This document shows, in pieces, positions 9,755 through 60,057 of a stretch of DNA of 64,000 bases. The notes beneath the pieces were generated by a model. The model searched no databases and was not told where the DNA came from. It saw only the letters and a list, made by a program, of their open reading frames with translations. The DNA lies in the NCBI GenBank assembly GCA_050485645.1, contig JBJHBT010000012.1, positions 2,597 through 66,596 on the forward strand, written 5' to 3'. The translations under genes and the position numbers were made by a program. Each line of letters opens with the position of its first letter. The first letter of the stretch is position 1. This DNA is from Gammaproteobacteria bacterium (lineage in GTDB: Bacteria; Pseudomonadota; Gammaproteobacteria; Steroidobacterales; Rariloculaceae).

Positions 9755-10972
9755 ATGCCATTTCGCACAGCCCTGAGCGGACTCAACGCGGCATCCGCCG
9801 ACCTGCGGGTTACCGGGCACAATATCGCCAACGCCGGCACCACCGGCTTCAAACAGTCGCGTTCGGAATTTTCGGACGTGTTCGCAACTGCCTACGGCGG
9901 CATCAGTCAGACGGCCGTGGGCGCCGGCGTGCGCCTGTCGAGCGTTACCCAGCAGTTCACGCAGGGCAACATCGATTTCACCGGCAACAATCTGGACATG
10001 TCGCTGTCCGGGAAGGGCTTCTTCGTTCTCGAGGACTCCGGCGGCCGCAGCTACTCGCGCGATGGTTCCTTCCAGATCGATCGTGATGGCTACGTCGTCA
10101 ATGCGGCCGGCAAACGGCTGCAGTCCTACGCCGTGCAGGACAGTCTGTCCGGCGCCTTCAATATGGGCGGTCTGGCCGACCTGCGGCTGTCGACCACCGA
10201 ATCCAGTCCGCGCGCCAGCAGCCAGGTGGAGGCGGTGTTCAACCTGCCTTCCGGCGCTGAAGATGTGTCCGCGATTCCATTCAGCGCGTCCGACCCGTCG
10301 AGCTTCACGTTTTCCACGTCGATGACGCTGTACGACTCGCTCGGACAGTCGCATGTCGCCACCATGTTCTTCCGCAACACCGGCCAGCTGACATGGGATG
10401 CTCACCTGACCGTGGATGGCGATGATGTGGGCGACGCGCAGCCGCTGCAGTTCTCGGACGACGGCCTGCTGCAGTCGCCGGCATCGCCGTTCGGTTTTGG
10501 TGCATGGACGCCGCCGAACGGCGCCGGTCCGATCGACGTAGCGTTCGACTTCAGCAATGCCACCCAGTACGGCAATCATGGCAGCGTCACATCGCTGCGT
10601 CAGGATGGTTTTGCCAGCGGTCGTCTCAGCGGCGTGGATATCAGCGAGTCCGGCGTCGCCTACGCACGTTTCACCAACGGCCAGTCACAGCCGCTGGGAC
10701 AGGTGGCGGTGGCGAGTTTCGCCAACCCCCAGGGTCTTCAGCAGGCCGGTGACAACGCCTGGCTGGAAACCTTTGCGGCGGGCGATCCGGTTTTCGGCGT
10801 TGCCGGCAGCGGCGACCTCGGCACTGTGCAATCCGGCGGACTGGAATCTTCCAACGTCGATATCGCGGAGCAGCTTGTCAAGCTCATTACCGCACAGCGT
10901 AACTTCCAGGCGAACGCACAGGTGATCAGCACGGCGGACTCGATTACCCAGACCGTCATCAACCTCCGCTGA
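9755..10972 (+). CDS. flgE: Flagellar hook protein FlgE
   Basis: N-terminal MPFRTALSGLNAASADLRVTGHNIANAGTTGFK and C-terminal LESSNVDIAEQLVKLITAQRNFQANAQVISTADSITQTVINLR. Confidence 0.95.
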   Translation: MPFRTALSGLNAASADLRVTGHNIANAGTTGFKQSRSEFSDVFATAYGGISQTAVGAGVRLSSVTQQFTQGNIDFTGNNLDMSLSGKGFFVLEDSGGRSYSRDGSFQIDRDGYVVNAAGKRLQSYAVQDSLSGAFNMGGLADLRLSTTESSPRASSQVEAVFNLPSGAEDVSAIPFSASDPSSFTFSTSMTLYDSLGQSHVATMFFRNTGQLTWDAHLTVDGDDVGDAQPLQFSDDGLLQSPASPFGFGAWTPPNGAGPIDVAFDFSNATQYGNHGSVTSLRQDGFASGRLSGVDISESGVAYARFTNGQSQPLGQVAVASFANPQGLQQAGDNAWLETFAAGDPVFGVAGSGDLGTVQSGGLESSNVDIAEQLVKLITAQRNFQANAQVISTADSITQTVINLR

Positions 10973-11084
10973 TCATCCACGAGTCGCCGACAGACCTCAC
11001 CAAGGTGGTTGCCCGCATGAAACACGCCGCAGCTGATCACGACAGACAGCCGATACAAAGGCGCAGTCAGGGAGTTCGTTGCTG

Positions 11085-17563: not shown

Positions 17564-18544
17564 ATGAATGGCACACGAATGTCCACTTCCATGGTGTACG
17601 CCAACGGCATCAACAGCATCCAGCGCCAGCAGACGGAACTGGCGAGGCTTCAGCAACAGCTTGCCACCGGGCGCCGGATCCTGTCGCCTTCCGATGATCC
17701 GGCAGGGGCGGTGCAGTCGCTGAAGTTTCGCGAGGGCATTGCCGCGGTCGATCAGTACGCACGCAATGCGATGATGGCGAACACTCGCCTGGAACTCGAG
17801 GAGAGCGTGCTGGCGCAGTTCGGCGACGTGCTCCAGCGCGGCCGCGAGCTGGCATTGACCGCCGCCAACGGCACACAGACCAATGAGTCGCGGGCGGCGA
17901 TTGCCGTGGAGATCCGGCAGCTCGCGGACGCCCTGGTGGACCTGGGCAATACCCGTGATGCGAACGGCGAGTATCTGTTCGCCGGGTATCGTTCCACGGA
18001 ACCCCCGTTTGTGCGCAATGGCGGCGGCGAGGTGGTGTTTCAGGGCGATGGCGGGCAGCGCCGGGTGGCGATTTCGCCGGACCGCAGCGTTGCGGTGGGC
18101 GACAGCGGGGATGCCTTCATGCGGCTGACGATTCAGGGCGTTGCAGACCCGGACGACGATCCGCCCGTGGTGCCTGATGTGCGGGTTTCGATGTTCGGCG
18201 TGCTCGACGACATGGCCACTGCCCTGTCCACGCCGCGCACCACGCCGGCCGCCGTCGCGCAGCTTCACGATGAGATGAACCTGTCGTTGCAGGGGTTCGA
18301 TCAGGCGCTGGGCCGTGTTCTCGAGCTGCGTACCGGCGTCGGAACGCGCCTGAACACCATTGAACGCCAGTCCGTCGCCAACGATGACCACAGGCTGCAG
18401 CTGCAGACCGCACTGTCGCAGATCGAGGACCTGGACTACGCCGAGGCGATCAGCCGTTTCAACCTGCAACAGGTGGCCCTGGAAGCGGCGCAGACGACCT
18501 ACGTGCAGTTCGGCCGGCTGAGTCTGTTCGATTATCTGAAGTGA
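17564..18544 (+). CDS. flgL: Flagellar hook-associated protein 3 FlgL
   Basis: Flagellin-like N-terminus (LARLQQQLATGRRILSPSDDPAGA) and C-terminus (DLDYAEAISRFNLQQVALEAAQTTY). Follows flgK. Confidence 0.9.
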   Translation: MNGTRMSTSMVYANGINSIQRQQTELARLQQQLATGRRILSPSDDPAGAVQSLKFREGIAAVDQYARNAMMANTRLELEESVLAQFGDVLQRGRELALTAANGTQTNESRAAIAVEIRQLADALVDLGNTRDANGEYLFAGYRSTEPPFVRNGGGEVVFQGDGGQRRVAISPDRSVAVGDSGDAFMRLTIQGVADPDDDPPVVPDVRVSMFGVLDDMATALSTPRTTPAAVAQLHDEMNLSLQGFDQALGRVLELRTGVGTRLNTIERQSVANDDHRLQLQTALSQIEDLDYAEAISRFNLQQVALEAAQTTYVQFGRLSLFDYLK

Positions 18545-20178
18545 ACGGTGTGGTGAGCGGCAGGGCGATCCCGACGGCGGAAGAACCGCGCCATCGGCCA
18601 CTCCCAGCGGAGGCGGCAGAGGACGTGGGAGGGGCGGCTGATGTCCGGGCGACGCCGGTTCAGCAGGCCCAGGCGCGCAAGCGGGCTCAGGCGGCGCTGG
18701 CCGACGGGGAATGGCGCGTGGCGGAACGACTTTTCCGCGCGCTGCTGAGCGTGGATCCGGGAGACCGGCATGCGCTGAAGGGGATGGCGGCGATCTGTCT
18801 GTCGACACGACGTCACAATGAGGCCCTTGCGTTCGCAACGCGTCTGCGCGAGCTGGCGGATAGCGACGCGGAATCCTTCAATCTCCTGGGCGCGGTGTAC
18901 TACGAGCTGGGTCGACCGGATGCCGCCGCGGAGGCGCTGCGCGAGGCCTTGCGTCTGGACCCTTCCAGCGATGCGGCTCTGGACAACTACGCTCTGATAC
19001 TGCGGTCGCAGGGGCAACTGGAAACCGCATCCAGCATGTTCGGGGCGTTGCTGGCCAGACATCCGCGCAATCCGCGACTGTGGCAGCGCTATGCGGAGTC
19101 ACGTGCGTTCGCCGCCGACGCGCCCGAGGTGGAACTGCTGGACACGCTGCTCGCCGCGACCGAATCCGACACCACCCCTGGCACTGGCCAGGGTGATCGT
19201 GCGCTGCTGCTGTCATCCAGAGCCAAGATGCATCTGGATGCCGGTGACGCAGACGCCGCATTCGCCGCTTTCCGTCAAGCCAACGCCTTGCGCCGTCAGT
19301 GTCATGCCGACGCTTTCGAACCATTCCGCCGTGGTGAGCCGCTCGATCGGGCCGAGCGGTTGATCCGGGGGATCACGGCGGATGTGTGTGAGCACTGGCG
19401 CGGGCGGGTACGGCCAAGGCGCGGCGTCACCCTGCTCCTTGGGCCTCCACGATCAGGGAAATCACTGCTCGAAAGTGCGCTGGCCGCACACGCCGCGATC
19501 ACGACCTACGGCGAGATGGACACGCTGGACCTGTCGCTGAAGCAGCTCGGGCCGGTATTTGCCGGCCAGGATCCCGCCGCACTGGTCCGCATCGGCAAGG
19601 CGGAAGCCAGACGGGCAGCGGCCGTCGTGGATGCAAGCCTTGGCGATGCGTCGCAGCAGCAGGTGTGTACCCGCCTGTTGACAACGCCGGCGCTGAATCA
19701 GCATGCAGGTACCCTGATGCTGCTCAATCCGGCAATGCGCCTTGTGATCTGTCAGCGGGATCCGGTAGCGAATGCGATGGCGATCTATACGCGACATTTC
19801 GATCGGCCTCAGCCCTACGCCTGGCAGGTGGATACGGTAGCCGAGTATGTGGCGGTGTATCGACGTCTGGCGCGTCATTGGGCGGACCTGTTTCCGAATC
19901 GGGTGGTGTGCGTGGACTACGAGGACCTGGTTGCAGCGCCGGACGAGACCGTTGCGCGCGTGTTGGCATTTCACGACCTGCCGTGGCAGTCCGCCTGTGC
20001 CAATCGGCACGGCTTCGAGCTGTCGCCGGCAACGGTTGGTTATTCCGGCAGCGTCGACGGCCGGGCACGCATCAGTCCCGCGTTCAGCAACATCAAGGCG
20101 GTGTTCGGCAACCAGGTGCCCCTGTTCCGGGATGCGCTGGAACGGGCCTTCGATCGCGTGCGGAGGCGGCTCGGATGA
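18541..20178 (+). CDS. TPR-repeat protein fused to a sulfotransferase domain (putative flagellar modification enzyme)
   Basis: GTG at 18541 overlaps the flgL stop (GTGA). The N-terminal half has TPR-like repeats (NLLGAVYYELGRPDAAAEALREALRLDPSS). The C-terminal half has sulfotransferase PAPS-binding-like motifs LLLGPPRSGKSLLES and ICQRDPVANAMAIY. Confidence 0.7.
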   Translation: MNGVVSGRAIPTAEEPRHRPLPAEAAEDVGGAADVRATPVQQAQARKRAQAALADGEWRVAERLFRALLSVDPGDRHALKGMAAICLSTRRHNEALAFATRLRELADSDAESFNLLGAVYYELGRPDAAAEALREALRLDPSSDAALDNYALILRSQGQLETASSMFGALLARHPRNPRLWQRYAESRAFAADAPEVELLDTLLAATESDTTPGTGQGDRALLLSSRAKMHLDAGDADAAFAAFRQANALRRQCHADAFEPFRRGEPLDRAERLIRGITADVCEHWRGRVRPRRGVTLLLGPPRSGKSLLESALAAHAAITTYGEMDTLDLSLKQLGPVFAGQDPAALVRIGKAEARRAAAVVDASLGDASQQQVCTRLLTTPALNQHAGTLMLLNPAMRLVICQRDPVANAMAIYTRHFDRPQPYAWQVDTVAEYVAVYRRLARHWADLFPNRVVCVDYEDLVAAPDETVARVLAFHDLPWQSACANRHGFELSPATVGYSGSVDGRARISPAFSNIKAVFGNQVPLFRDALERAFDRVRRRLG

Positions 20179-20234
20179 CCACGACGCCAATGACCACGAC
20201 GCCGATGACCGCGGCAGGGATGACAGCGGCACGC
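20175..20234 (+). repeat. 15-bp tandem repeat x4 (ATGACCACGACGCCA-like)
   Basis: Units at 20175-20189, 20190-20204, 20205-20219 and 20220-20234. They read MTTTP MTTTP MTAAG MTAAR in the frame of a possible 78-aa ORF (20175-20411). Confidence 0.8.
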
Positions 20235-20325
20235 GTGAACGTGACCGGATTCACAGCCGTCGTCGTTGCGACTGTCGAATGCGTCACACCCTGCGCCGGA
20301 TCGGTGCGCGCATGCCATACCGGAC

Positions 20326-20352
20326 TAAAGGTCGGCGCACTCGGGTCGATAC
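20326..20352 (+). promoter_or_regulatory. Sigma-28 (FliA) promoter of fliC
   Basis: TAAAG-N14-GTCGATAC versus consensus TAAA-N15-GCCGATAA (-10 matches 6/8). About 100 nt upstream of the fliC ATG. Confidence 0.7.
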
Positions 20353-20450
20353 CTTGGTCGCAAGCGGTGCCTTCCGGCCGCCGGCACGGTGCCCGCCGCT
20401 GGCGGCAATGAAAGAATCGAACGCAATTGTAAAGAATCAGGAGTATCCAA

Positions 20451-21929
20451 ATGTCCCAGGTCATCAACACCAACGTGATGTCGCTGAATGCCCAGCGCAA
20501 TCTGGCGAACTCGGGTGGGCAGCTCGCAGTGTCGCTGCAGCGTCTGTCGTCGGGCCTGCGCATCAACAGCGCAAAGGACGACGCGGCAGGGCTCGCGATT
20601 TCCGAGCGGTTCACAACACAGATTCGCGGCCTGAATCAGGCGATCCGCAACTCCAACGACGGTATCTCACTGGCACAGACCGGTGAAGGCGCCCTGCAGG
20701 AGATTTCCAACAACCTGCAGCGCATCCGCGAGTTGGCCGTGCAGTCGGCGAACGCCACCAACAGTGCCTCCGACCGTGCGGCGCTGGATGCTGAAGTGCA
20801 GCAGCGGCTGGCGGAAGTGAACCGCATCGCCAACCAGACGTCGTTCAACGGCCAGAAAATTCTCGACGGCAGCTTCGGTTCGGCCGTGTTCCAGGTTGGC
20901 GCCAATGTTGGCGAAACGATTTCGCTGAGCCTTGGCACCAGCATGCGCACCACCGACATCGGTGCGATCGCCACGGCCACTTCGGTGGATCTGGGCACGC
21001 TGATCTCGGAAGCCGAGGATGCGGTGCCGACGACGTCCGTGGCGGCAGGCGCCTTCACCGACGCCACCGGCGCCACCGGATCGACGTTCACGCTGACGGT
21101 GGGTGGTGTACAGATCGTCGATCTGGCGACCACGGGAGCTGCCGTTCCGATCACCGCAGCGGATCTTGACGCCGACTTCGACGTCGCCGCTCAGGGAGCA
21201 CTGGCTGCCGCCGGGATTACGTTCTCAGGCAGCTTCGCCGACGGGACGATGACGTTCACCCGCGCCGACGGGCAGGATTTTGATGTTGCTCGTGGCGGTA
21301 CGGCGGCTGGCGGTACGTTTGCCGACGGCGCGTTTGTCGGTACGCACAGCAACGGTACCGAAGCTTCCCCGGCCGAGGCGCTGACGATTACCGACCTGAC
21401 TCTGCAGATCGGTGACGCCGAGGCGGTCGCGGTGACCGCCGACGACTATGATTCGGTGCAGGGCTTCATCGATGCACTGAACTCGGCGCTGGGCAGTGAC
21501 GGCACCGCTACGCTGAACGAGAACGGAACGGTCAGCATTCTGGCTTCGCAGCCGATCACCATCAGTGGCGCGGATCAGGCCACGGTGTTCAGTGCGGCGA
21601 GCTACGCGGCCTCGGGCGACCTGGCTGGTGTAACGGTGACATCGGTTTCGGCGGCCAATGATGCGATACAGCGTATCGACTCGGCGCTGACCGCCGTGAG
21701 CAGCCTGCGCAGCGATTTCGGCGCGGTGCAGAACCGCTTCGAATCGGTGATCGCGAACCTGAACACGGTATCCGAGAACCTGTCGGCCTCGCGGTCGCGC
21801 ATCATGGACGCGGACTTCGCGGCGGAAACCGCGAACCTGACCCGCGCCCAGGTGTTGCAGCAGGCCGGTGTCGCGATCCTGGCACAGGCCAACGCGATGC
21901 CGCAGAACGTTCTTGCGCTGCTGCGCTGA
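20451..21929 (+). CDS. fliC: Flagellin FliC
   Basis: 492 aa. N-terminal MSQVINTNVMSLNAQRNLANSGGQLAVSLQRLSSGLRINSAKDDAAGLAISERF and C-terminal AAETANLTRAQVLQQAGVAILAQANAMPQNVLALLR, with an Ala/Thr/Gly/Asp-rich central domain. Confidence 0.97.
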   Translation: MSQVINTNVMSLNAQRNLANSGGQLAVSLQRLSSGLRINSAKDDAAGLAISERFTTQIRGLNQAIRNSNDGISLAQTGEGALQEISNNLQRIRELAVQSANATNSASDRAALDAEVQQRLAEVNRIANQTSFNGQKILDGSFGSAVFQVGANVGETISLSLGTSMRTTDIGAIATATSVDLGTLISEAEDAVPTTSVAAGAFTDATGATGSTFTLTVGGVQIVDLATTGAAVPITAADLDADFDVAAQGALAAAGITFSGSFADGTMTFTRADGQDFDVARGGTAAGGTFADGAFVGTHSNGTEASPAEALTITDLTLQIGDAEAVAVTADDYDSVQGFIDALNSALGSDGTATLNENGTVSILASQPITISGADQATVFSAASYAASGDLAGVTVTSVSAANDAIQRIDSALTAVSSLRSDFGAVQNRFESVIANLNTVSENLSASRSRIMDADFAAETANLTRAQVLQQAGVAILAQANAMPQNVLALLR

Positions 21930-23504: not shown

Positions 23505-23930
23505 GTGATGATGCGTGGCGGGATTCACAGTGGGGTGAAACAGTACCAGCAGGTGGGCATGCAGATGCCGGTGCACGATGCCTCTCCGCATCAGCTGATC
23601 CAGATGATGTTCGATGGCGCCCTGCAGGCACTGGCTGCCGCGCGGGGTGCACTTCAGGCCGGAGAAATCAGCGCCAGGGGCGAGCATATCGGCAAGGCCA
23701 TCGATCTTGTGGAGGGATTGCGCATCAGTCTGGATATGGAACGCGGTGGCGACCTGGCACAGAACCTCGCCGCGCTCTACGACTACATGGCGCGACGCCT
23801 GCTGGAAGCGAACATGCGCGGGGATGACAGCCTACTGGTGGAGGTCACCAGCCTGCTGCGCGAACTGAACACCGGCTGGCAGGAACTTGGCGAGCTGCTG
23901 GTCAGGCACGCGACGGACGAAGTTCGGTGA
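23505..23930 (+). CDS. fliS: Flagellin-specific export chaperone FliS
   Basis: ASPHQLIQMMFDGALQALAAARGAL...KAIDLVEGLRISLDMERGGDLAQNLAALYDYMARRL is a typical FliS core. Confidence 0.9.
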   Translation: MMMRGGIHSGVKQYQQVGMQMPVHDASPHQLIQMMFDGALQALAAARGALQAGEISARGEHIGKAIDLVEGLRISLDMERGGDLAQNLAALYDYMARRLLEANMRGDDSLLVEVTSLLRELNTGWQELGELLVRHATDEVR

Positions 23931-24340
23931 CCGGCGCGACGCTGACGCCTCCCGCTTGCAAGACGCTGCCACCGGGCGACGAGGCTGGCGAGGCCAGTCT
24001 CCACAAGGCACTGGTCGAGCGCGTGGATGCCTGCATCTCGGATGCCGCGCGGGCCGTTCAGGAACACGACTGGCAGGCGGCGGCAGAGGCCAATCAGGCG
24101 CTGCATCGCGTGCTGCTGGAGGTGGAGAAACTGGCCGGTGCGCATGCCGCCGGACAATGGAGTGCGCAGGATCTGTATCCGCTGCTGGCCTGCCTGCAGG
24201 CCGCCAGTGCCGGGCATCGGCGTCTGATCGCAACCCTGGACGCGCAGAAATCAGACACGCTGGAGCAGTTGCGCGGCGTTCGTGCCGGCCACAGACTGAT
24301 GGCCGGGTTTCCGGAGCCGATGGCACAGCCGCCACGATGA
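23927..24340 (+). CDS. Hypothetical helical protein, possibly FliT-like flagellar chaperone
   Basis: 137-aa all-helical ORF. Its GTG overlaps the fliS stop (GTGA) and it sits in the position fliT occupies in related clusters. No strong motif recognised. Confidence 0.35.
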   Translation: MTGATLTPPACKTLPPGDEAGEASLHKALVERVDACISDAARAVQEHDWQAAAEANQALHRVLLEVEKLAGAHAAGQWSAQDLYPLLACLQAASAGHRRLIATLDAQKSDTLEQLRGVRAGHRLMAGFPEPMAQPPR

Positions 24341-24963
24341 GCGATTCGACGACCAGCACGCAAGCACTGTCAGTGGCGCAGCTGCGCGCACTGGGAGATC
24401 ACGTGTACTGCGACGACGAGCTGCGTCTGGAATGGCGACGCATCGACGATCTTCCCCAGGAGCCGGTGCTGGCGCGTTGCAACGCGCGAAACGAGACGAT
24501 GCTGCGCGCATTCGCGATGCTCGAGGAACACGATGTCACCCAGGCCGACGGCGCGGAACGGGCCGAGTTTCACCGACTGGAAGGCAAGCTGGACCTGGCC
24601 CTGGAGCTGCTTGCGGATGTCGTGCGTGAACGCGAGCAGGACGTGTCGCCCGTGCCGGTGCGCTTCAATATGCGCGGTCTGTGCTGGAGCAGCCCGAAGC
24701 GTGCGGAGTCCGGCGAGCTGCTGCGTGTCGACTGCCATCTGCTGCCTCCCTGGCCGTTGCCGCTGCGCCTGTATGCGCAGGTGGTGGGTGTCGAGCGGCA
24801 AGCGGATCTCTGGCTTGTCTGTTCGCGACTGCAGGGCCTGACTCCGGGCGTCGAAGACTGGCTGGCCAAGCTGGTGTTCCGGCGCCATCGTCGCCAGGTT
24901 GCCCGACAGCGTTCGCGCAACCACCGCGCCGTGAGCGACCGGCACGCGGGGGATCCCGACTGA
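24337..24963 (+). CDS. Hypothetical protein, possibly atypical PilZ-like c-di-GMP receptor
   Basis: ATG at 24337 overlaps the upstream stop (ATGA). 208 aa with a beta-rich C-terminal half (VPVRFNMRGLCWSS...LLRVDCHLL...LRLYAQVVGVE) and an Arg-rich tail FRRHRRQVARQR. A PilZ-type gene is known at this position in Xanthomonas-type flagellar clusters. Assignment is tentative. Confidence 0.35.
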   Translation: MSDSTTSTQALSVAQLRALGDHVYCDDELRLEWRRIDDLPQEPVLARCNARNETMLRAFAMLEEHDVTQADGAERAEFHRLEGKLDLALELLADVVREREQDVSPVPVRFNMRGLCWSSPKRAESGELLRVDCHLLPPWPLPLRLYAQVVGVERQADLWLVCSRLQGLTPGVEDWLAKLVFRRHRRQVARQRSRNHRAVSDRHAGDPD

Positions 24964-25140: not shown

Positions 25141-26493
25141 GTGCGCACGTGCATTCGGCGCATGCCGGCAAAGTGCCTCCCCTTCGGCGGTGAAAGGCGC
25201 TGCCGTCACCCGACATCCCGTACACCCATTGACTGTCCCGACGTGAGCAACCCGAACGACGTGAATGCCGGTGGCGCGTTGACCACCGAAGGCGATGCCT
25301 TGTTCAGATCGCTTGTCGGCGACAGCGCTGCGGTGAAGAAAGTGCGTGAGATGATCGCGCAGGTCGCACCGACCGACGCAACGGCGCTGATTCTTGGTGA
25401 GACCGGAACGGGCAAGGAAGTCGTCGCCCGCAATCTGCACTATTTCAGCACGCGTCGCAGCCAGCCATTCGTTGCCGTCAACTGTGGTGCGATTCCGGCT
25501 GAGTTGCTGGAAAGCGAACTGTTCGGCCACGAAAGGGGCGCCTTCACCGGAGCGCTCACCGCCCGCAAGGGGCGTTTCGAACTCGCATCCGGCGGCACGC
25601 TGTTTCTCGACGAGATCGGCGATATGCGGCTCGATATGCAGGTCAAGCTGCTGCGGGTTCTGCAGGAGCGGCGCTTCGACCGCGTCGGCGCGTCATCGAG
25701 CATGAATGTGGACGTGCGTGTGATTGCCGCCACGCACAGGGATCTGGAGCAGATGATCGCGGAGGGCACGTTCCGTGAGGATCTGTACTATCGGCTCAAC
25801 GTCGTGCCTATCGAGATGCCGCCGCTGCGGGACCGCCTCGAGGACATTCCACTGCTGATGGCGGAACTGAATTCGCGTCTGGAAGGACGCGGCCTGACGC
25901 CTTCACGCTTCAGCGACGAAGCCTTCGCCGCGCTGTTTCGCTATGGCTGGACGGGTAACGTCAGGGAACTGGCGAATCTGGTGGAGCGTTTCGCGATACT
26001 GGTACCGGGACGGGAAGTACGGCTGGCGGATCTGCCCGCCAAGATCACAGCCGCACAGAGGCCGGCAGCAAGTGTCGGGTCGCATCATCCTGTTCGGTCG
26101 GCAATACCGGGTGTGACATCGCACGGTTCTATCCCCCAGGGTTCAGCACCCCAGGGTTCACAGCTCCGGGGTTCATTGCCAGAAGGAACGGCCGCCCGTG
26201 GTTCGACGCCGGATCCACTGGCGGTTCCGGGCTCCGGAACGCTGCGCGAACCGGGTCTCCCGCCCGACATCGGCTTCGGTCACGAACCTATCGAGCTCAA
26301 AGGCGTGCTGGAAACCCTGGAGATCAGACTGATCTCGCAGGCACTGGATCGCTGCGGCGGCGTCGTTGCCCACGCGGCACGCAATCTCGGGCTGCGCCGC
26401 ACCACACTGGTGGAGAAGATCCGCAAGTTCGGTATCGAACGCGAAGGCGGTCTGGTCGAGAACGATCAGGCCTCGAGCGCCTCGCACGCCTGA
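25141..26493 (+). CDS. Sigma-54-dependent transcriptional activator without receiver domain (FleQ-like master regulator candidate)
   Basis: AAA+ core with Walker [15 protein letters not shown] loop (HERGAFTGA) and ESELFGH, plus a C-terminal Fis-type HTH ([21 protein letters not shown]). Only about 20-55 aa precede the AAA+ core. Start is uncertain (GTG 25141, ATG 25162 or GTG 25243). Confidence 0.85.
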
Positions 26494-26611: not shown

Positions 26612-26627
26612 TGGCACGCTCCTTGCT
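26612..26627 (+). promoter_or_regulatory. Sigma-54 promoter upstream of the second activator gene
   Basis: TGGCAC-GCTCC-TTGCT, an exact match to the -24/-12 consensus, 50 nt upstream of ATG 26678. It is preceded by an AT-rich tract (GAAATATGAACACTTTATCGAT). Confidence 0.8.
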
Positions 26628-26677
26628 TGTGTTCGCTGTGTAGTGAATTCGGCAGCAGAGTCAGGGAGTGCCGCGAT

Positions 26678-27688
26678 ATGCGGGAACAGCGCACCGAAGC
26701 ATCGAACGGATCGGACCATTCGCTGGTAGCGGACGATGCCGCCAGCCGCAATGTGCTGGCGCTGGCGCGGCGGGTTGCAGCGGCCGATGTCACCGTGATG
26801 CTCACGGGTGAATCCGGCGTCGGCAAGGAACTGTACGCGCGCTTCATTCACGAAAATTCCCCGCGCCGCTCACAGCCGTTCGTCGCCGTGAACTGTGCGG
26901 CGATACCGGCGTCGATGCTGGAAGCCACGCTTTTCGGTCACGACAAAGGCGCATTCACAGGCGCCGCCGATGCCCGCTCCGGAAAGTTCGAGCAGGCCGA
27001 TGGCGGCACGCTGCTGCTGGATGAAATAACCGAGATGGCGCTGGATCTCCAGGCCAAACTGCTGCGCGTTCTGCAGGAGCGTGAAGTGGAACGCCTTGGC
27101 GCGTCACGCGCGCGCCGCGTCGACGTGCGCGTCATCGCAACGTCGAATCGTGATCTGCGGCAGGCGGTGCGCGACGGCATCCTGCGCGAAGACATCTACT
27201 ATCGGCTGAACGTGTTTCCGTTGTCGATTCCACCGCTGCGGGAACGGCGCGCGGACATTGTCGTACTGGCGGAACATCTGATCGCCCGCCATGCGGGCGG
27301 TGACACGCTGCCGAAGCTCAGCGCGGGCGCCGCCCGCCACCTCGCCGACCATGACTGGCCCGGCAATGTGCGTGAGCTTGAGAATGTGATCCAGCGTGCG
27401 CTGATCCTTCAGCATGGCGGCAGCATCGAAATCGCCGATCTGCAGCTCGATGCGCTGCCGCTGCATCAGCAGCTGAACCCGGCTCAGGGCATGAATTCGG
27501 GTCAGCCGCAACACCGTGCCGATGACCTTGAGTCGTCGCTGCGCGAATCCGAGGAGCAGCTGATCCTGCATGCCCTGAAAGCCGAGTCCGGGCGCCGCGG
27601 CGCGGCCGCGCAGCGGCTTGGTATCAGCCCCAGGACGCTGCGTTACAAGCTTGCACGCATGCGCGACATGGGCGTCGCCTTGCCATAG
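26678..27688 (+). CDS. Second sigma-54-dependent activator without receiver domain (FleT-like position, first gene of the fliE operon)
   Basis: ATG 26678 with GGGAG RBS; the track TTG at 26627 lies inside the promoter. Walker [15 protein letters not shown] (HDKGAFTGA) and C-terminal [24 protein letters not shown]. About 25 aa precede the AAA+ core. Confidence 0.85.
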
Positions 27689-47670: not shown

Positions 47671-48546
47671 TCAGGACAGGGTCGCTTCCAGTTCCTCGGT
47701 GACGCCGGCAAGCGTCGCCGCGATCTGTTCGACATCGTCATTATCCAGGCCGAGCGCGGACAGTGCCGGACGCTGCAGCTGCTGCGCCTGCGGGTCGCGC
47801 ACGAAGCCGATGTGCTGTTTGTGAGCCAGCACATCGGCCAGATGCACCACACAGCGTTGCGGCAGGGTGGCCGCGGGGCCGGTGGCGGGATCATGGTGGG
47901 AGCCGATGGCATCGGCGATTGAATCGGGCAGTCGCCAGTTGCGTGCGAGGCTGTAGCCATAGTCGTGATGGCCCACTGCCAGGGCGCTGAGTTCACCGAG
48001 CAGCTCGACCAGTTGCGCATCGGCCGCTGCCGCGGACTCGCGCGCATGTGAAACCTGAAGTTCGATCACGAAGCCGATGTCGTGCAACAGGCCGGCCAGA
48101 AAGGCTTCGTCACCGTTGATCCTGCCCGACACCGTCGCGGCCAGGCGCGCGGCGCCGGCAACCGCCAGCGAGTGTCGCCACAACGCCCGCGGAGAAGCTT
48201 CGCCGCGCCAGACCTTGCCGCGCAGCATGGCGCCGACACTGGTGGCGATGGCGATATTGCGGATTGCCGGTCCGCCGAGAACGATGACCGCGCGCTGTAT
48301 CGTGCCGATGCGTCCGGCTGTGCCATAGAACGCCGAGTTGACGACCTTGAGAATACGCAGGCACAGGGCGGGATCCGTCGATACAAGTTTTTCCAGTTCA
48401 TGGCTGGTGTAATCGTGATCCTGCATCAGTTCGATGATGCGCAGCGTCACGTCCGGCAGCATGGCCACGCGCCGGACACGCCGGATCGCGCTGTCGGCCA
48501 GCTCCGCTCTGCGAGCGCCGTCGTTCGCGGATACCGCATTCAGCAT
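47671..48546 (-). CDS. HDOD domain protein
   Basis: MLPDVTLRIIELMQD...STDPALCLRILKVVNSAFYG...IQRAVIVLG...LWRHSLAVA...EAFLAGLLHDIGFVI is a typical HDOD pattern. Start overlaps the upstream gene stop. Confidence 0.85.
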   Translation of the reverse strand: MLNAVSANDGARRAELADSAIRRVRRVAMLPDVTLRIIELMQDHDYTSHELEKLVSTDPALCLRILKVVNSAFYGTAGRIGTIQRAVIVLGGPAIRNIAIATSVGAMLRGKVWRGEASPRALWRHSLAVAGAARLAATVSGRINGDEAFLAGLLHDIGFVIELQVSHARESAAAADAQLVELLGELSALAVGHHDYGYSLARNWRLPDSIADAIGSHHDPATGPAATLPQRCVVHLADVLAHKQHIGFVRDPQAQQLQRPALSALGLDNDDVEQIAATLAGVTEELEATLS

Positions 48547-50324
48547 CGGGCGCCGCCAGTCGGCAATGCCGCGAGCTGTCCGGCCGGTGAGCCGTTACAC
48601 AGATTGAACAGTGCCCGCGCCGGTAGCGGTCGCGACAGGTAGAAGCCCTGCGCGTAGTCGCAGCCCAGCGCCTGCAGTGTGATCAGCTGGTCGCTGGACT
48701 CCACGCCCTCGGCGATGGTGTCGATGCCAAGGTCATGTGCCAGTTCGATGATGGCATTCAGCACCGCGACCAGATCCCGGCTGTTGCCGATGTCGGTAAC
48801 GAAGGCCGGCGCGATCTTGGCGATGCTCAGCGGGAACTGACGCAGGCAGGCCAGCGACGAATAGCCGCTGCCGAAGTCGTCCATTGCGATACGCACACCC
48901 AGCTCCGCCAGTTCGCGCAGTGCATTGCGCGATACGTCGGTGTCGCGCATCAGGCTGGCTTCGGGCACCTCGACGACCAGATCGGTCGGTTCAAGTCCGG
49001 AGTCGGCGAGGATGTCGGTGTAGCGTCGGGCGTTTTTCCGTGCCAGCAGCTGCTGCACGGCGATGTTGACGGCCAGTGTCGCGGGCGCGCGTTCTGCCAG
49101 CAGCATGCGCCAGTCCTTCATCTGCCGGCACGCCTCGCCCAGCACCCATTCCCCGATAGGCACGATGAGGCCGGTGTCCTCGGCGACGGACATGAAAGCA
49201 GCCGGCGACAGCAGGCCGTAGTCCGGATGCTGCCAGCGCAGCAGTGCTTCCACCGATGTGATCTGTCCGCCGTGCAGCGAAAACACCGGCTGATAGACGA
49301 GCAGGAACTGTTCCCGGTCCAGCGCACGGTGCAGGTCGCGCTCCATGGACAGGCGCTGTCTGGCCACTTCGCGCATCCGGCCATCGAAGACCACGTGGTG
49401 CCCCTTGCCGGCAGCCTTGGCCGAATACATGGCCGTGTCCGCATCGCGCAGCAGTTCGTCCACTGAATCGTGACCCAGTTCGCTGGTGACGATGCCGACA
49501 CTGGCGGTGGAGCATATTTCATGCCCGTCGATGAGATGAGGCTTCTCGAACGCCGCCAGCAGCCGCTCGGTGACACGCGCCGCGTCCTCCGGTCTGCTCA
49601 GTCCGGTGAGCAGCACGACGAACTCGTCACCGCCCACCCGCGCGACGGTGGTCTGGTTGGTGGCGGTCTGACCGACGGTATCGTGCACGCGCAGATTGTT
49701 GCGGAACCGTAACGCGATTTCGCGCAGCAGTTTGTCACCGACATCGTGACCAAGACTGTCGTTGATGGCCTTGAAGCGGTCGAAGTCGAAGTAAAGCACC
49801 GCGAAGCAGAAGTCCGGCATGGCCTGACTCTGCTCGATGGCGCGGGTGATACGGTCTCCGAGCAGATGGCGATTCGGCAGACCCGTCAGGTTGTCGTGCA
49901 GAGCCTGCTGCTGAAGACGTTGCAGCAGACTCTGGGTCTTGATCGCGGCGCCGACCCTGGCGCGCACCTCGGCCGCGCAGAATGGCTTGCGGATGTAGTC
50001 GCAGGCGCCGAGTGTGAATGCCTCGGACACCGTGTTCGAATCGGCAGCCGACGTGACCATCATCACCGGAATACGTGCCGTGGCGGTGTCATCCTTGAGC
50101 TGTCGCAATACCGACAGGCCGTCCATGTCGGGCATCTGATAGTCGAGCAGGATCAGCGCCGGATCAGCACGCGTGGCAAGCTCCAGGCCTTCCTGCCCGG
50201 ACGTGGCGCGCAGCAGCTCCAGCGGCAGCGAGCGCAGCTGTGCGGCGAGCAGGTCGTGTATCTGCGGTGTATCGTCGATGGCCAGTATGCGTTTCACAGC
50301 CGACTCCTTCTCCACTGCCGTCAT
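48540..50324 (-). CDS. Response regulator with REC-GGDEF-EAL domains (c-di-GMP turnover)
   Basis: REC (ILAIDDTPQIHDLL...LILLDYQMPDMDG...KPF). Intact GGDEF (VARVGGDEFVVLL). Intact EAL (VEALLRW...DDFGSGYSSL...KIAPAF). Confidence 0.92.
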   Translation of the reverse strand: MTAVEKESAVKRILAIDDTPQIHDLLAAQLRSLPLELLRATSGQEGLELATRADPALILLDYQMPDMDGLSVLRQLKDDTATARIPVMMVTSAADSNTVSEAFTLGACDYIRKPFCAAEVRARVGAAIKTQSLLQRLQQQALHDNLTGLPNRHLLGDRITRAIEQSQAMPDFCFAVLYFDFDRFKAINDSLGHDVGDKLLREIALRFRNNLRVHDTVGQTATNQTTVARVGGDEFVVLLTGLSRPEDAARVTERLLAAFEKPHLIDGHEICSTASVGIVTSELGHDSVDELLRDADTAMYSAKAAGKGHHVVFDGRMREVARQRLSMERDLHRALDREQFLLVYQPVFSLHGGQITSVEALLRWQHPDYGLLSPAAFMSVAEDTGLIVPIGEWVLGEACRQMKDWRMLLAERAPATLAVNIAVQQLLARKNARRYTDILADSGLEPTDLVVEVPEASLMRDTDVSRNALRELAELGVRIAMDDFGSGYSSLACLRQFPLSIAKIAPAFVTDIGNSRDLVAVLNAIIELAHDLGIDTIAEGVESSDQLITLQALGCDYAQGFYLSRPLPARALFNLCNGSPAGQLAALPTGGARC

Positions 50325-50427
50325 CGCCGCAACTTCCCTGGCAACCAGACCGATCCCCGTGTCACGACACCCGGTGCCGTGTCACTACGCTTGTGGCACC
50401 AGCATCATCCGGCTGATGCCACGGCTG

Positions 50428-51273
50428 TCATCCCAACCCCAGACTGTCGCGGAGTTCGTCGCGCTCGGCGATGAGACTGTCCAGCTTCGACCTCGCGATG
50501 CCCAGACGCTGAAGGTCGGGGCGGCCGTCCAGCAGCGCCAGTGTTTCGTCGGCAACCGGGGTGGAGATCCGCGACACCAGGATTCCCAGCGTCAGCACGT
50601 CGATCATCGGTTCGCGCTCTTCGACGTCGGGTTCGCACTGACGTTCTATCGCCGTCGCGGCGTCGTCCGGCAGGCGCCAGTACTCGGCGATGGCCTTGCC
50701 AACGCTCGGGTGCCAGGTGCGGATGAGTTCTTCCGCGGATTCGGCGTCGGCGAACAGTTCCGGATACTGCGGCGCCCTGCTGTAAAGGTAGATCACGCCG
50801 ATGTTGTGCAGCAGGCCAACCACCAGTGATTCGTCCGCGGAAACCCTGCCGCTGCCGCGGGCGATCAGGTAGCACGATGCCGCGGTGCGGGCGGCATCGG
50901 CCCACGCCGGCCGCAGCAGATGTTCAACCTGGCGGTACTCCTCGCGCTCGCGCAGCTGGCGCATCGCGAATGTCATTGTGGCGGACTGCACGGCGCTGGC
51001 ACCCAGACGCGAGATGGCGGCTGAGATGTCCGTCGTTGGTTTGCCGTTGCGTCGGAAGGTGAAGGAGTTGGCCATGGTCAGTATGGTGCCGACAAGGGCC
51101 GGTTCACTGCGCAGCACCCGGGCGAGCCTGTCGATGGAATAGTCCGGGTCCGCGAGTGCACTGCGAATGTTCATGACCGATTCTGAAAGCGCGGGCAGAT
51201 GCAGATCGCCCGCAGACAACTCGTCCGCCAGCCCCTGGACCAGCGAGTAGGCATCAGCTTGATTGACAGACAC
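50428..51273 (-). CDS. HDOD domain protein
   Basis: LPALSESVMNIRSALADPDYSIDRLARVLRSEPALVGTILTMANS...ISRLGASAV...LVVGLLHNIGVIYL is the HDOD pattern. First gene after the sigma-28 promoter at 51320-51346. Confidence 0.85.
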   Translation of the reverse strand: MSVNQADAYSLVQGLADELSAGDLHLPALSESVMNIRSALADPDYSIDRLARVLRSEPALVGTILTMANSFTFRRNGKPTTDISAAISRLGASAVQSATMTFAMRQLREREEYRQVEHLLRPAWADAARTAASCYLIARGSGRVSADESLVVGLLHNIGVIYLYSRAPQYPELFADAESAEELIRTWHPSVGKAIAEYWRLPDDAATAIERQCEPDVEEREPMIDVLTLGILVSRISTPVADETLALLDGRPDLQRLGIARSKLDSLIAERDELRDSLGLG

Positions 51274-51319
51274 GGGATCTCCTGTTCGAAGGCGGCACGG
51301 CGCCGTGGTCTCGGTCCCG

Positions 51320-51346
51320 TTATCGGCCGATTCAGCGCGGCCTTTA
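51320..51346 (-). promoter_or_regulatory. Sigma-28 (FliA) promoter for the HDOD / REC-GGDEF-EAL / HDOD operon
   Basis: Minus strand reads TAAAG-GCCGCGCTGAATCG-GCCGATAA (plus strand TTATCGGC-N15-TTTA). The -10 matches 8/8, the -35 is exact and the spacing is consensus. About 47 nt upstream of ATG 51273. Confidence 0.8.
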
Positions 51347-51382
51347 GCGCGGCCTTTAGCGCGGCCTTTAGCGCGGCCCTTA
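51335..51382. repeat. 12-bp tandem repeat x4 (GCGCGGCCTTTA), each unit carrying a TAAAG element on the minus strand
   Basis: Units at 51335-46, 51347-58, 51359-70 and 51371-82 (last unit CCCTTA). The promoter-proximal unit supplies the -35 of the sigma-28 promoter. Confidence 0.9.
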
Positions 51383-51460
51383 GCGCGACATGGCGCCGCG
51401 GACCAGGTTCAGCGCGAACGAAGCTGCGGACGCCGGTTCGCCGCGCGCCGGGTGGATCAT

Positions 51461-52711
51461 CTAGCCGATCCGGTGCGACAACAGGCCATCGACGAGCTTG
51501 GGTTCGAACCAGGTGGATTTCGGCGGCATCGCAAGCCCGGCGTCGGCCACGGCCATCAGCTGGTCCATGCGCGTGGCGAACATCGAGAACGCGACGGCCG
51601 CCCGCCCGCCGTCCACGCGTCGCTCCAGCTCCGACAGACCGCGTATGCCGCCGACGAAGTCGATGCGAGCATCGGTGCGCGGGTTGTCTATGCCCAGCAC
51701 CGGTCGCAGCAGCAGTTCCTGAAGCAGGCTCACGTCCAGACTTGCCACCGGATCGTTCCGCGGCCGTGTCTTCGGTGGCAGTGTCAGACGGTACCAGCGA
51801 TCGGCCATGTACATGCCGAAGGTGCCCGGCTGGTCGGGCGCCACGGCTGCGGATTCCGGGTGAACGTGAAACTCGCCGGCAATGCGCGTCAGCAGCTGAT
51901 CGGGCGACAGGCCGTTGAGATCACGCACCACGCGGTTGTAGTCGAGTATGCGCATCTGGTCGTCGGGGAACGCGACGACGAGAAAGTATTCGCTGTCACC
52001 GCCGCGCTCGCGTGCGACGCGCGCGGCCGCCGCGGCGCGATGATGGCCGTCGGCGATGTAGATCGCCTCATGGCGATCCAGCGCATCCTGCAGGGCCTGC
52101 ATGTTTGCCGCATCGCTGATGCGCCAGATCCGGTGCCGCACATCGTTCGGGCCGATGGCGTCGAGCAGCGGTGCCGACGCCGTGGTTTCGGCCAGCGGCT
52201 GATCCAGAGCCGGATCGGCCCGGTAGGCACACAGCACGGGGCCGGTCTGCGCGTTCAGCGCCAGAATGTTGCGTACCCGGTCGTTTTCCTTGTTTGGCCG
52301 CGTGAATTCGTGTTTGCGGACGCGGTTCGCGTCGTAGGCCTGCGTGGACGCGGTGAAGGCGATGCCGGTTTGCACATGATCGCCGTCGTTCATGCGGTAC
52401 ACGTAGAAGCACGGGGATGCTTCGCGCACAAGTACGCGCTGTTCGATCATGCGCTGCAGCTGCGCGGCGCCGGCCGCATATACCTGATCTGAATAGGGAT
52501 CGACGCCGTCAGGCAGGTCGATTTCCGGTCGTGAGATATGCAGGAACGACCATGGACGGTTCGCGGCCAGACCGCGCGCTTCGGCAGTGTCGATCACGTC
52601 GTAGGGCGGTGCAATGACATCCGCGGCCTGGGCGGCGTCGGGCCTGAGCGCGGCGAACGGCCGCGCAAGCGGTTGGTGTTTCTGGTTCATCGCGCCATTA
52701 TAAGGGTACAC
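51461..52711 (-). CDS. DUF1015 family protein
   Basis: 416 aa. N-terminal ARPFAALRPDAAQAADVIAPPYDVIDTAEAR matches my recollection of the DUF1015 N-terminal signature. Function unknown. Confidence 0.65.
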   Translation of the reverse strand: MYPYNGAMNQKHQPLARPFAALRPDAAQAADVIAPPYDVIDTAEARGLAANRPWSFLHISRPEIDLPDGVDPYSDQVYAAGAAQLQRMIEQRVLVREASPCFYVYRMNDGDHVQTGIAFTASTQAYDANRVRKHEFTRPNKENDRVRNILALNAQTGPVLCAYRADPALDQPLAETTASAPLLDAIGPNDVRHRIWRISDAANMQALQDALDRHEAIYIADGHHRAAAAARVARERGGDSEYFLVVAFPDDQMRILDYNRVVRDLNGLSPDQLLTRIAGEFHVHPESAAVAPDQPGTFGMYMADRWYRLTLPPKTRPRNDPVASLDVSLLQELLLRPVLGIDNPRTDARIDFVGGIRGLSELERRVDGGRAAVAFSMFATRMDQLMAVADAGLAMPPKSTWFEPKLVDGLLSHRIG

Positions 52712-52777
52712 AGGGCACTTCGTTGGGTGTGCTCCGCCCGTAGACAGACCATCAGCACGATGTCAGGAGAATGCGCG

Positions 52778-53239
52778 ATGCAGCGAACCGTTACGCGAGA
52801 GCAGCTGGATGCGTTGACCGGCCAGCGGCTGGGCGTGTCTGATTGGCTGGAAGTCGATCAGAAGCGCATCAACGAATTCGCCGATGTCACCGACGATCAT
52901 CAGTACATCCATGTCGACGCCGAGCGCGCACGGCAGTCGCCGTTCGGTACGACCATTGCGCATGGGTTGCTCACGCTGTCACTGATCGTGCGGCTGTGCC
53001 TGCCACTGGTGCCGCGACTCGATACGATGACCATGGTGCTGAACTACGGCTTCGACAGGGTGCGGTTTCCTGCGCCGCTGAAGTGCGGCAGCCGCATTCG
53101 CGCCGTCGTGGATCTGGATTCGGTGGAGCAGCGTCAGCCCGGACAGGTTCTGATCCGCCTTGGCGTCGTTGTCGAGATCGAGCATGAGTCCAGACCAGCC
53201 CTGGCCGCTGAGTGGCTGGCACTGCAGCTGACCGGCTGA
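52778..53239 (+). CDS. MaoC-like (R)-specific enoyl-CoA hydratase / hot-dog fold dehydratase
   Basis: ATG 52778 with AGGAGA RBS. INEFADVTDDHQYIHVDAERARQSPFGTTIAHGLLTLSL is the MaoC dehydratase motif. Confidence 0.85.
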   Translation: MQRTVTREQLDALTGQRLGVSDWLEVDQKRINEFADVTDDHQYIHVDAERARQSPFGTTIAHGLLTLSLIVRLCLPLVPRLDTMTMVLNYGFDRVRFPAPLKCGSRIRAVVDLDSVEQRQPGQVLIRLGVVVEIEHESRPALAAEWLALQLTG

Positions 53240-53268
53240 GCTTTCCGTGCCGCACACGTTTGCTGTTG

Positions 53269-53294
53269 CCGGCCACCACCCGGGCGGTGGCCGG
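53269..53294 (+). terminator. Stem-loop after the MaoC-like gene (candidate terminator)
   Basis: CCGGCCACC-ACCCGGGC-GGTGGCCGG, a 9-bp perfect stem 30 nt after the stop. No T-tract. Confidence 0.4.
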
Positions 53295-60053: not shown

Positions 60054-60057
60054 TCTC

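Follow-up and report, generated by a model that had tools for sequence, protein, structure and literature searches.

What does a sulfotransferase-like protein do when its gene stands between those for the hook–filament junction and the flagellin? The question is raised by a 64-kb stretch (hereafter the window) of contig JBJHBT010000012.1 from a gammaproteobacterium of the Rariloculaceae, where an open reading frame (ORF) for a protein with tetratricopeptide repeats (TPR) in its N-terminal half and a sulfotransferase (ST) domain in its C-terminal half lies between flgL and fliC (Table 1). The protein is called TPR-ST below. The original prediction took it for a FlmG-like enzyme that sulfates flagellin or a glycan on it. 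Of this idea, the TPR–transferase layout and the association with fliC, found at 12 of 12 loci, have held up, whereas the rationale built on the tyrosines of flagellin has not. Judging from sequence and predicted structure, we consider it probable, if only by a little, that TPR-ST is a flagellin-dedicated sulfotransferase, which would sulfate flagellin or something attached to it.

Both halves of the protein were identified by profile hidden Markov model (HMM) searches. The N-terminal half matches more than ten Pfam TPR families at residues ~40–190 (TPR_14, 2.5e-15; TPR_19, 5e-14), in agreement with its first description as TPR-like. The sulfotransferase character of the C-terminal half is decided by the match to Sulfotransfer_3 (PF13469; E = 2.1e-22, 80.9 bits against a cut-off of 27), which spans residues 299–483 and profile positions 4–215 of 216; the Sulfotransfer_1 profile is also scored (23.3 against a cut-off of 22). 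No glycosyltransferase (GT) family was matched in the profile search, and no kinase family at E ≤ 0.01. The SycD/LcrH-class TPR chaperone profile gave a weak match (43 bits against a cut-off of 105). An AlphaFold2 (AF2) model built from seven homologues is of moderate to good quality, with a mean predicted local distance difference test score (pLDDT) of 77 and a predicted template modelling score (pTM) of 0.78. It shows an all-helical part at residues 39–286, made of the TPR superhelix and linker helices, and an alpha/beta domain of sulfotransferase fold at residues 296–545; residues 1–34 and 490–511 are disordered.

The nearest solved relatives of the catalytic half are tyrosylprotein sulfotransferases (TPSTs). 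The profile search of the PDB was redone with the catalytic domain alone, the full-length alignment having been swamped by designed and OGT TPR repeats. The human and tick TPSTs were then the only matches across the whole domain (TPST1/2, E ~ 3e-5); the CurM and olefin-synthase sulfotransferases matched at the P-loop only, and carbohydrate sulfotransferases were far weaker (heparan 3-O-sulfotransferase (3-OST), E ~ 0.3). Foldseek likewise returned TPST2 (3ap3; E = 1.3e-5, TM 0.55), followed by TPST1, the olefin-synthase sulfotransferase 4gox and Stf1 (2zq5). With the full-length model, its top matches were SPINDLY and OGT, through the TPR superhelix, and the TPR domains of OGT and SPINDLY are also the best natural PDB sequence matches of the TPR domain. 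The TPR domain of TPR-ST is proposed to be a substrate-docking module.

Close relatives of TPR-ST are few. Among 5.8 billion proteins, a word-indexed search turned up only seven, and public records label the relatives merely 'sulfotransferase [Gammaproteobacteria bacterium]'. When 1.84 billion cluster representatives were scanned exhaustively with HMMER, the protein fell into a TPR-ST superfamily of which 9,635 representatives score at E < 1e-30; a metagenome scan added only distant paralogues. The clade that aligns end to end in a single stretch has about eight representatives (P0001, P0004, P0031, P0032, P0034, P0035, P0036 and the more distant P0122). Twelve core-clade loci with readable genomic context were counted: the window itself; the metagenome-assembled genomes (MAGs) JTS-RE254 (L002, = L006) and PLM2.Bin7 (L064, = L008); the assembly GCA_020832005.1 (L061); the Logan contigs from SRR30985848 (L063) and SRR32456869 (L065); the ENA contig ERZ27301263 (L066); and Thioalkalivibrio strains ALJ1 (L004), ALE10 (L007), ALJ16 (L009), ALJT (L010) and ALJ7 (L011).

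At all 12 loci a flagellin gene follows shortly downstream on the same strand, with a gap of 122–272 nucleotides (nt) at the eight loci measured (272 nt in the window), although the identity of the sulfotransferase to the window protein falls to 37%. The upstream side is less constant. flgL stands there in six loci (with gaps of 24–36 nt in L063 and L065), and in Thioalkalivibrio ALJ1 the upstream genes are a Yip1-family gene and cobalamin-biosynthesis genes, with fliC still downstream. Since the upstream genes vary while fliC always follows, the conserved unit is ST–fliC and not ST–flgL. The order flgL–TPR-ST–fliC that had been put forward for a synteny survey thus stands for its second half at every locus, and for its first half at six loci, with other genes in the place of flgL in ALJ1. 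Paralogues at 24–27% identity never adjoin flagellin. The arrangement is more than chance, given such decisive E-values for the domains and its recurrence at each of the 12 related loci.

The same pair is found in at least six cultured Thioalkalivibrio strains, five of which are named above. Thioalkalivibrio are haloalkaliphiles of soda lakes. All five Thioalkalivibrio assemblies show a further feature, in that the contig ends in or just past the flagellin gene that follows the sulfotransferase gene, and L007 has two tandem flagellin genes (9781–11025 and from 11372 on). The assemblies are probably broken at this point by repeated flagellin paralogues, and several flagellins are therefore likely to lie downstream of the sulfotransferase gene in these strains.

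In the window, the link with flgL is nevertheless a close one. The GTG start codon of TPR-ST (18541–18543) and the TGA stop codon of flgL (18542–18544) overlap by 4 nt (GTGA), just as first described for the 545-residue ORF, and the identity of flgL is confirmed by TIGR02550. A 4-nt start/stop overlap (ATGA) is also present between flgL and the sulfotransferase gene in L002 and L061. The membership in a hook–filament junction operon that had been read from this overlap needs to be qualified: the overlap is real, but the conserved partner is fliC and not the flgKL operon. The GTG start itself is no more than plausible, because the first ~34 residues are predicted to be disordered and are conserved only in the 76%-identical relative P0002.

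How are the enzyme and its proposed substrate expressed? A sigma-28-type promoter of the form TAAAGGTC-N11-GTCGATAC is predicted upstream of fliC in the window from the regular expression TAAAGTTT-N11-GCCGATAA. In eight of eight loci tested with such an expression (TAAAG...-N11-..CGATAA-like), a match is found at the same relative place, ~100–125 nt upstream of the fliC ATG and inside the ST–fliC spacer. From flgK to fliC, the + strand of the window showed neither a terminator nor a sigma-70 promoter. The simplest reading is a flgK–flgL–ST transcript followed by a separate late fliC transcript. Since the former would precede the latter, the enzyme would be present before its proposed substrate. 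Upstream of the Thioalkalivibrio sulfotransferase genes, a search for sigma-28 and sigma-54 promoters gave a single weak sigma-28-like match (in L007).

The spacer between the two genes holds two further features. In the window, the fliC leader carries a GC-rich hairpin (GCCGCCG...CGGCGGC) downstream of the sigma-28 promoter and ahead of the Shine-Dalgarno sequence; the same fliC-leader hairpin is found in L002, L061, L063 and L064, with a near-invariant stem (covariation in 1 of 14 pairs) and no Rfam match; an Rfam scan of the whole spacer gave nothing credible. Post-transcriptional control of flagellin could act through the hairpin. A small ORF (20175–20411; MTTTPMTTTPMT... / MTTTPMTTTPMTAAGMT), whose ATG overlaps the stop codon of the sulfotransferase gene, is probably not a gene. 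A 68-residue ORF at the same place in L061 (7563–7769) has no similarity to it, and we reject both as genes since they are mutually unrelated and overlap the fliC promoter and leader.

The genomic context also bears on a different explanation, in which TPR-ST belongs to the flagellum but does not act on flagellin. It might sulfate FlgK or FlgL, FliD, FlaG or an envelope molecule near the flagellar pole, or, without being catalytic, it might serve flagellin as a TPR chaperone or regulator whose nucleotide-binding domain has degenerated. The coupling or tight linkage to flgL in six loci would suit this explanation, as would the most divergent clade member, P0122, which stands beside FleQ in a flagellar cluster and not beside fliC. 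The weak SycD/LcrH chaperone-class matches would suit a chaperone. Against it, the Thioalkalivibrio sulfotransferase gene has left flgL and stayed with fliC. The remaining evidence on this explanation comes from the active site.

Does the catalytic half look like a working enzyme? Conservation was read from 14 aligned sequences, including two canonical outgroups. The two motifs initially picked out as resembling 3'-phosphoadenosine 5'-phosphosulfate (PAPS)-binding motifs are GPPRSGKSLLES (residues 301–312) and QRDPVANAMAIY (residues 405–416). They survive in part: the P-loop glycines and Arg406 are retained, but the serine that usually binds the 3'-phosphate is replaced by Ala414. In the 5'-phosphosulfate-binding (PSB) loop, G301 and G306 are invariant in 14 of 14 sequences and R304 is nearly so (Gly in P0036), while K307, present in every clade member and Thr in both outgroups, takes the place of the first Thr of the canonical loop. 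The clade loop GPPR[SA]GK[ST] is a perfect Walker-A consensus, with K[ST] in 11 of 11 clade loops, as against the wider-family loops PRSG[ST][ST], which have [ST][ST] at those positions in 189 of 192 cases. In the 3'-phosphate-binding (3'-PB) motif, Arg406 is invariant; the position eight residues on is Ala in the core clade (Val in P0036), and Ser is kept there in P0122 and the outgroups. Invariant in all 14 sequences are also H317, R400, H446 and W447.

In the HMM alignment, the PRSG of the PSB loop, the family Y-G-E that contains Glu325, and Arg406 all align with TPST2. The TPST2 residue paired with Glu325 is presumably Glu99, the catalytic base. Of the auxiliary catalytic residues of TPST2, Lys158 and Ser285, the former falls in an insert that has no counterpart in the profile alignment. 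S504 is nearly invariant but lies in a low-confidence loop (pLDDT < 50), and it may or may not match Ser285 of TPST2. The invariance of the glutamate, the 3'-PB arginine and the P-loop glycines over a deep divergence argues for retained catalysis and a working active site. The same three elements count against a non-catalytic TPR-ST, for which the atypical PAPS site (Ala for Ser, and P0036 without the loop Arg) would speak. Taking context and active site together, we regard it as rather improbable that flagellin is not the substrate or that the protein is inactive.

The donor is a separate matter. We infer PAPS, and not securely, because of the Walker-A-like loop and the alanine in place of the 3'-PB serine. 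With a changed donor, TPR-ST might use adenosine 5'-phosphosulfate (APS) in place of PAPS; were the donor ATP, flagellin would be phosphorylated. Such a change would fit the clade-specific loop, the replacement of Ser by Ala or Val in the core clade only, and weak P-loop ATPase matches at the loop (E ~ 0.1–0.3). We nonetheless hold it to be highly improbable, seeing that whole-domain similarity is to sulfotransferases only, that Arg406 and the TPST-type glutamate are kept, and that the profile search produced no kinase family at its threshold.

If TPR-ST is a flagellin sulfotransferase, which group would receive the sulfate? Tyrosine was the acceptor first considered, and the two tyrosines of the window flagellin, Y333 and Y385, do both lie in the central region between Flagellin_N (residues 5–141) and Flagellin_C (residues 406–491). 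Tyrosines were then counted in every flagellin adjoining an orthologue of the sulfotransferase gene. The complete flagellins of L002 (389 residues), L061 (391) and L007a (414) contain none, nor does that of L065 (389 residues, cut just before its end); the complete flagellins of the window (492 residues), L063 (601) and L066 (419) contain two each. Tyrosine-free are thus three of the six complete partner flagellins, the near-complete one of L065 and all truncated Thioalkalivibrio flagellin fragments. As a family-wide mechanism, the tyrosine rationale fails on these three of six. On the sequences at hand, tyrosine sulfation cannot be the function that holds the ST–fliC pair together, because half of the partner flagellins have no tyrosine.

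A TPST- or RaxST-like enzyme acting on flagellin tyrosines in acidic context would still agree with TPST1/2 being the closest solved homologues, with the aligned catalytic glutamate, and with bacterial tyrosine sulfation being established for RaxST (PMC4646787, PMC4892823). The flagellin tyrosines, where present, also often have acidic neighbours (ADDY in the window, DEDY and GDDY in L063, TSEY in L066), set against a background frequency of 1–3% for acidic residues at both -1 and -2, which is intriguing in view of what TPST and RaxST prefer. This count is post hoc, comes from a tiny sample and is inflated, because window Y333 and L063 Y346 (VTLDEDYGSLAGLVDAI) are one homologous site; the V-T..D-Y.S..G..DA pattern around the two looks structural. 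With tyrosine missing from so many partners and TPST2 Lys158 lacking a counterpart in the profile alignment, we find a dedicated tyrosine sulfotransferase barely credible.

A glycan on flagellin would explain the dispensable tyrosines equally well. Flagellin O-glycosylation is common in polar-flagellated proteobacteria, the flgL–fliC interval is a classic site of glycosylation islands, and sulfotransferases routinely act on the hydroxyls of sugars and on other aliphatic hydroxyls. In such a scheme, flagellin would be O-glycosylated by a transferase encoded elsewhere, and TPR-ST would dock on flagellin and sulfate a sugar hydroxyl of the glycan. However, flagellin glycosylation genes normally adjoin flagellin genes, and the flagellar regulon of the window (~5.9–47 kb) has no gene for a GT, a Maf protein or the nonulosonate pathway; nor do the L002, L061 and L066 flagellar clusters, as far as they are sequenced. 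TPR-ST is the only non-canonical enzyme in all of these, and a glycan-tailoring enzyme beside fliC, with GT and sugar pathway elsewhere, would be unusual. Sulfated archaellin glycans, with their sulfotransferases identified, provide a documented parallel for the glycan (PMC11980604), but the closest solved relatives of TPR-ST are protein and not carbohydrate sulfotransferases (TPST against heparan 3-OST, with the E-values given above). Altogether we judge sulfation of a flagellin glycan unlikely, though a serious contender.

The only sugar genes in the window form a cluster for 3-deoxy-D-manno-octulosonate (Kdo) and WaaA (56456–62052), ~35 kb off and beyond the cyclic di-GMP (c-di-GMP) and MgtE genes. 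It contains a divergent Kdo-transferase (WaaA) paralogue in an operon with kdsA, a KdsC-like phosphatase gene and a bona fide waaA. We considered this cluster as a flagellin glycosylation system and rejected it, given its lipopolysaccharide (LPS)-related look and its distance; it is probably for the LPS core, with WaaA present in duplicate.

A direct protein acceptor, namely Ser/Thr, is slightly favoured over a glycan on the grounds that no GT genes were seen in these flagellar regions, that the TPR module appears suited to docking a protein, and that the catalytic domain is TPST-like. The mechanism we propose runs as follows. In the window, TPR-ST would be co-transcribed and translationally coupled with flgK–flgL and would so be made before fliC; the gene arrangement is observed, the timing is what it suggests. 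Like the TPR domain of FlmG, the N-terminal TPR superhelix would dock flagellin that has just been made and is still in the cytoplasm, ahead of its export. The TPST-like domain would then move sulfate from PAPS to hydroxyls of the variable, surface-exposed region of flagellin, with Glu325 as the putative base and the GPPRSGK[ST] loop and Arg406 predicted, from their conservation, to hold the donor. The acceptors would most likely be Ser/Thr side chains directly, with tyrosine only where present, and not a glycan; of all the steps, this one is the weakest. The outcome would be a more negatively charged filament surface. In a rough split of the general claim that flagellin or something attached to it is sulfated, the largest share, a little over half, falls to direct Ser/Thr sulfation, a substantial minority to a glycan, and a small remainder to tyrosine only. 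A role in filament solubility, in the prevention of bundling, or in the evasion of phages or predators at high salt is speculation.

Several points weigh against this proposal. Literature searches found no enzyme dedicated to Ser/Thr O-sulfation of proteins, and we know of none, which lowers the prior for the Ser/Thr step. The variable regions of the flagellins share no common conserved acceptor motif. As far as sequence comparison goes, the TPR domain is not flagellin-binding by homology, because the TPR–linker–ST layout goes back to a very large, uncharacterised superfamily. Neither PAPS use nor activity is assured, in view of Ala or Val for Ser, the Walker-A loop and the loss of the loop Arg in P0036. 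No PAPS-synthesis genes (cysC/cysN) lie within the 64-kb window, and a search of the literature on PAPS supply found no relevant precedent. Finally, the gene for a glycosyltransferase may lie beyond the regions covered here. That TPR-ST is the first dedicated protein Ser/Thr O-sulfotransferase, TPR-guided, TPST-related and acting directly on flagellin with no glycan intermediate, is a possibility we raise only tentatively, with the balance tilted against it.

How does TPR-ST compare with known systems? Known flagellin modifications are glycosylation, lysine methylation and phosphorylation. FliB of Salmonella, a flagellin lysine N-methyltransferase, is a non-glycan modifier encoded directly beside fliC; it differs in transferring methyl from S-adenosylmethionine to Lys, in its unrelated fold and in having no TPR. 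In full-text searches, we met with no account of bacterial flagellin, or a glycan on it, being sulfated, and with none of a sulfotransferase encoded at a flagellin locus; searches on sulfotransferases in flagellin glycosylation islands and on Thioalkalivibrio flagellin gave no relevant precedent either. The initial statement had likewise been that no well-described bacterial flagellar modification of this kind was known.

The closest parallel in layout is FlmG of Caulobacter crescentus, a modular flagellin O-glycosyltransferase of 596 residues with TPR at 1–313 and GT at 309–596, whose TPR domain alone binds flagellins and gives specificity (PMC7591256). The same paper describes FlmG as made before the export chaperone, a timing point similar to that of TPR-ST before fliC (PMC7591256). 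The two share the N-terminal TPR and C-terminal transferase, a similar size (596 and 545 residues), a cytoplasmic location and membership of the flagellar gene set. In contrast to the GT-B domain of FlmG, the catalytic domain here is a P-loop sulfotransferase (PF13469); the window has no pseudaminic-acid (Pse/Leg) pathway, and the layout of TPR-ST descends from the large TPR-ST superfamily and not from FlmG. Flagellin binding is proposed by analogy. OGT and SPINDLY (TPR + GT41) resemble TPR-ST in that TPR recruits protein substrates to a C-terminal transferase modifying Ser/Thr. Their catalytic fold and donor are unrelated, and they are eukaryote-type regulators with many substrates, as opposed to the single substrate proposed here. 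TPR-ST stands outside both the FlmG and the OGT/SPINDLY families because its catalytic domain is a sulfotransferase.

TPST1/2 (PDB 3AP1, 5WRI) and RaxST share with TPR-ST the PRSG of the PSB loop, the catalytic Glu and the 3'-PB Arg. The identity to TPSTs is ~15–18% with a TM of ~0.5; GK[ST] replaces GTT, and the 3'-PB Ser is Ala here. TPR-ST also differs from TPSTs and RaxST in its TPR fusion and in that half of its presumed substrates have no tyrosine. By sequence, TPR-ST belongs to Pfam Sulfotransfer_3 and is nearest to the TPSTs, but it does not qualify as a TPST on substrate.

The only documented case of a sulfated motility filament that we found is that of Halobacterium salinarum, also a high-salt host, where the archaellin N-glycan is sulfated by VNG1056C/VNG1057C and the negative charge is discussed with regard to filament bundling (PMC11980604). 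This system is evolutionarily unrelated: archaellin is unrelated to flagellin, the sulfate sits on an N-linked tetrasaccharide, the enzymes work within the glycosylation pathway, and PMC11980604 mentions no TPR.

The clade is also to be compared with the wider TPR-ST superfamily (such as P0013 of Marivita, P0017, and the arrays L012–L014 and L024), which has the TPR–linker–ST layout at 23–28% identity and shares the invariants H317, E325, R400, R406, H446 and W447. It differs in the canonical PRSG[ST][ST] loop, the 3'-PB Ser and a C-terminal R-T-A-S-x-x-Q-V-R-x-P-I-Y motif, and in not standing beside flagellin; its genes cluster with those for a TonB receptor, a TPR-methyltransferase, a Cupin_8 protein and an S8 protease. 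TPR-ST is a specialised offshoot of this very large, uncharacterised superfamily.

The distant paralogues (24–27% identity) form tandem arrays of 3–4 genes (L024, 360–14028; L013, 53–16450; L012, 545–13167), whose neighbourhood recurs across taxa, in a Natronospirales MAG and two gammaproteobacterial MAGs. The array neighbours include a TonB-dependent receptor, a TPR-fused TylF-type O-methyltransferase, a Cupin_8/JmjC-like protein, an S8 subtilase with a PKD domain and a UDP-glucose dehydrogenase. On several tailoring enzymes, TPR thereby seems to serve as a recruiting module that can be reused.

Table 1. Coordinates of TPR-ST, its parts and other features in the window
Feature	Position	Strand	Evidence or remark
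flgL, hook–filament junction protein 3	17564..18544	+	TIGR02550, 312 bits against a cut-off of 127
TPR-ST gene	18541..20178	+	ORF, 545 aa, GTG start; Pfam TPR and Sulfotransfer_3
TPR-ST N-terminal ~34 residues	18541..18642	+	predicted disordered (AF2 pLDDT < 50, residues 1–34), poorly conserved
TPR/helical-repeat domain, aa ~39–290	18655..19410	+	Pfam TPR; 15 helices over residues 39–286 (AF2)
Sulfotransferase domain, aa ~296–545	19426..20178	+	PF13469; TPST1/2 PDB profile match; Foldseek 3ap3
PSB loop GPPRSGKS, aa 301–308	19441..19464	+	Walker-A-like, clade-specific variant
Glu325, candidate catalytic base	19513..19515	+	invariant in 14/14; pairs with second Glu of TPST2 'CGEE'
3'-PB motif RDPVANAMAIY, aa 406–416	19756..19788	+	aligned to TPST2 RDGRASVHSM
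fliC sigma-28-type promoter	20326..20352	+	predicted, regular expression
fliC-leader hairpin	20376–20409		GC-rich
fliC, flagellin, proposed substrate	20451..21929	+	492 aa; Flagellin_N 7e-46, Flagellin_C 2e-28
Tyr333 codon	21447..21449	+	ADDYDS context (DDYD = 21441–21452)
Tyr385 codon	21603..21605	+	SAASYAAS context
137-aa ORF after fliS	23927–24340		no family match
Atypical PilZ (tPilZ) protein	24370–24963		c-di-GMP receptor
FleQ-type sigma-54 activator, first	25141–26493		
FleQ-type sigma-54 activator, second	26627–27688		
Signalling block	47671–54817		directly downstream of regulon
Divergent Kdo-transferase (WaaA) paralogue	56456–58156		301 bits against NCBIfam cut-off of 438; N-terminus maybe over-extended
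kdsA	58153–58989		in operon with divergent WaaA paralogue
KdsC-like phosphatase	60058–60741		
Bona fide WaaA	60763–62052		476 bits

Around TPR-ST, the window holds a complete, canonical polar-flagellum regulon. It begins with flgN, flgM and flgA, continues with ORFs at 8.6–12.6 kb that are presumably flgB–G and with flgI–L, then passes through TPR-ST, fliC, fliD, fliS, an atypical PilZ protein gene and two sigma-54 activator genes, and ends with fliE–R, flhB, flhA, flhF, the gene of a ParA/MinD-type ATPase (presumably FlhG), fliA and motB. The 137-residue ORF after fliS takes the position of a weak FliT match in L066. The PilZ protein is an atypical (tPilZ) c-di-GMP receptor and the two consecutive activators are of FleQ type; the order fliS – ORF – tPilZ – sigma-54 activators is the same in L002 and L061. 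Directly downstream of the regulon, a signalling block encodes two HDOD-domain proteins, a response-regulator–GGDEF–EAL protein, a second GGDEF–EAL protein and a DUF1015 protein, and plausibly serves the c-di-GMP control of motility.

What would it mean if flagellin is sulfated by TPR-ST? The idea is directly testable, since cultured Thioalkalivibrio strains carry the gene pair. If true, it would add a new chemistry to the tailoring of the flagellar surface, with a bearing on the charge of the filament, on its solubility where salt and pH are high, and on its recognition by phages or the immune system; the very large TPR-ST superfamily would also gain a functional anchor. If the acceptor is Ser/Thr, TPR-ST would be the first enzyme for a modification without a transferase known in any organism. 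The direct Ser/Thr reading, if true, would mean a sulfated flagellar filament in haloalkaliphilic Gammaproteobacteria, and would imply that the more than 9,000 representatives of the TPR-ST superfamily are protein sulfotransferases.

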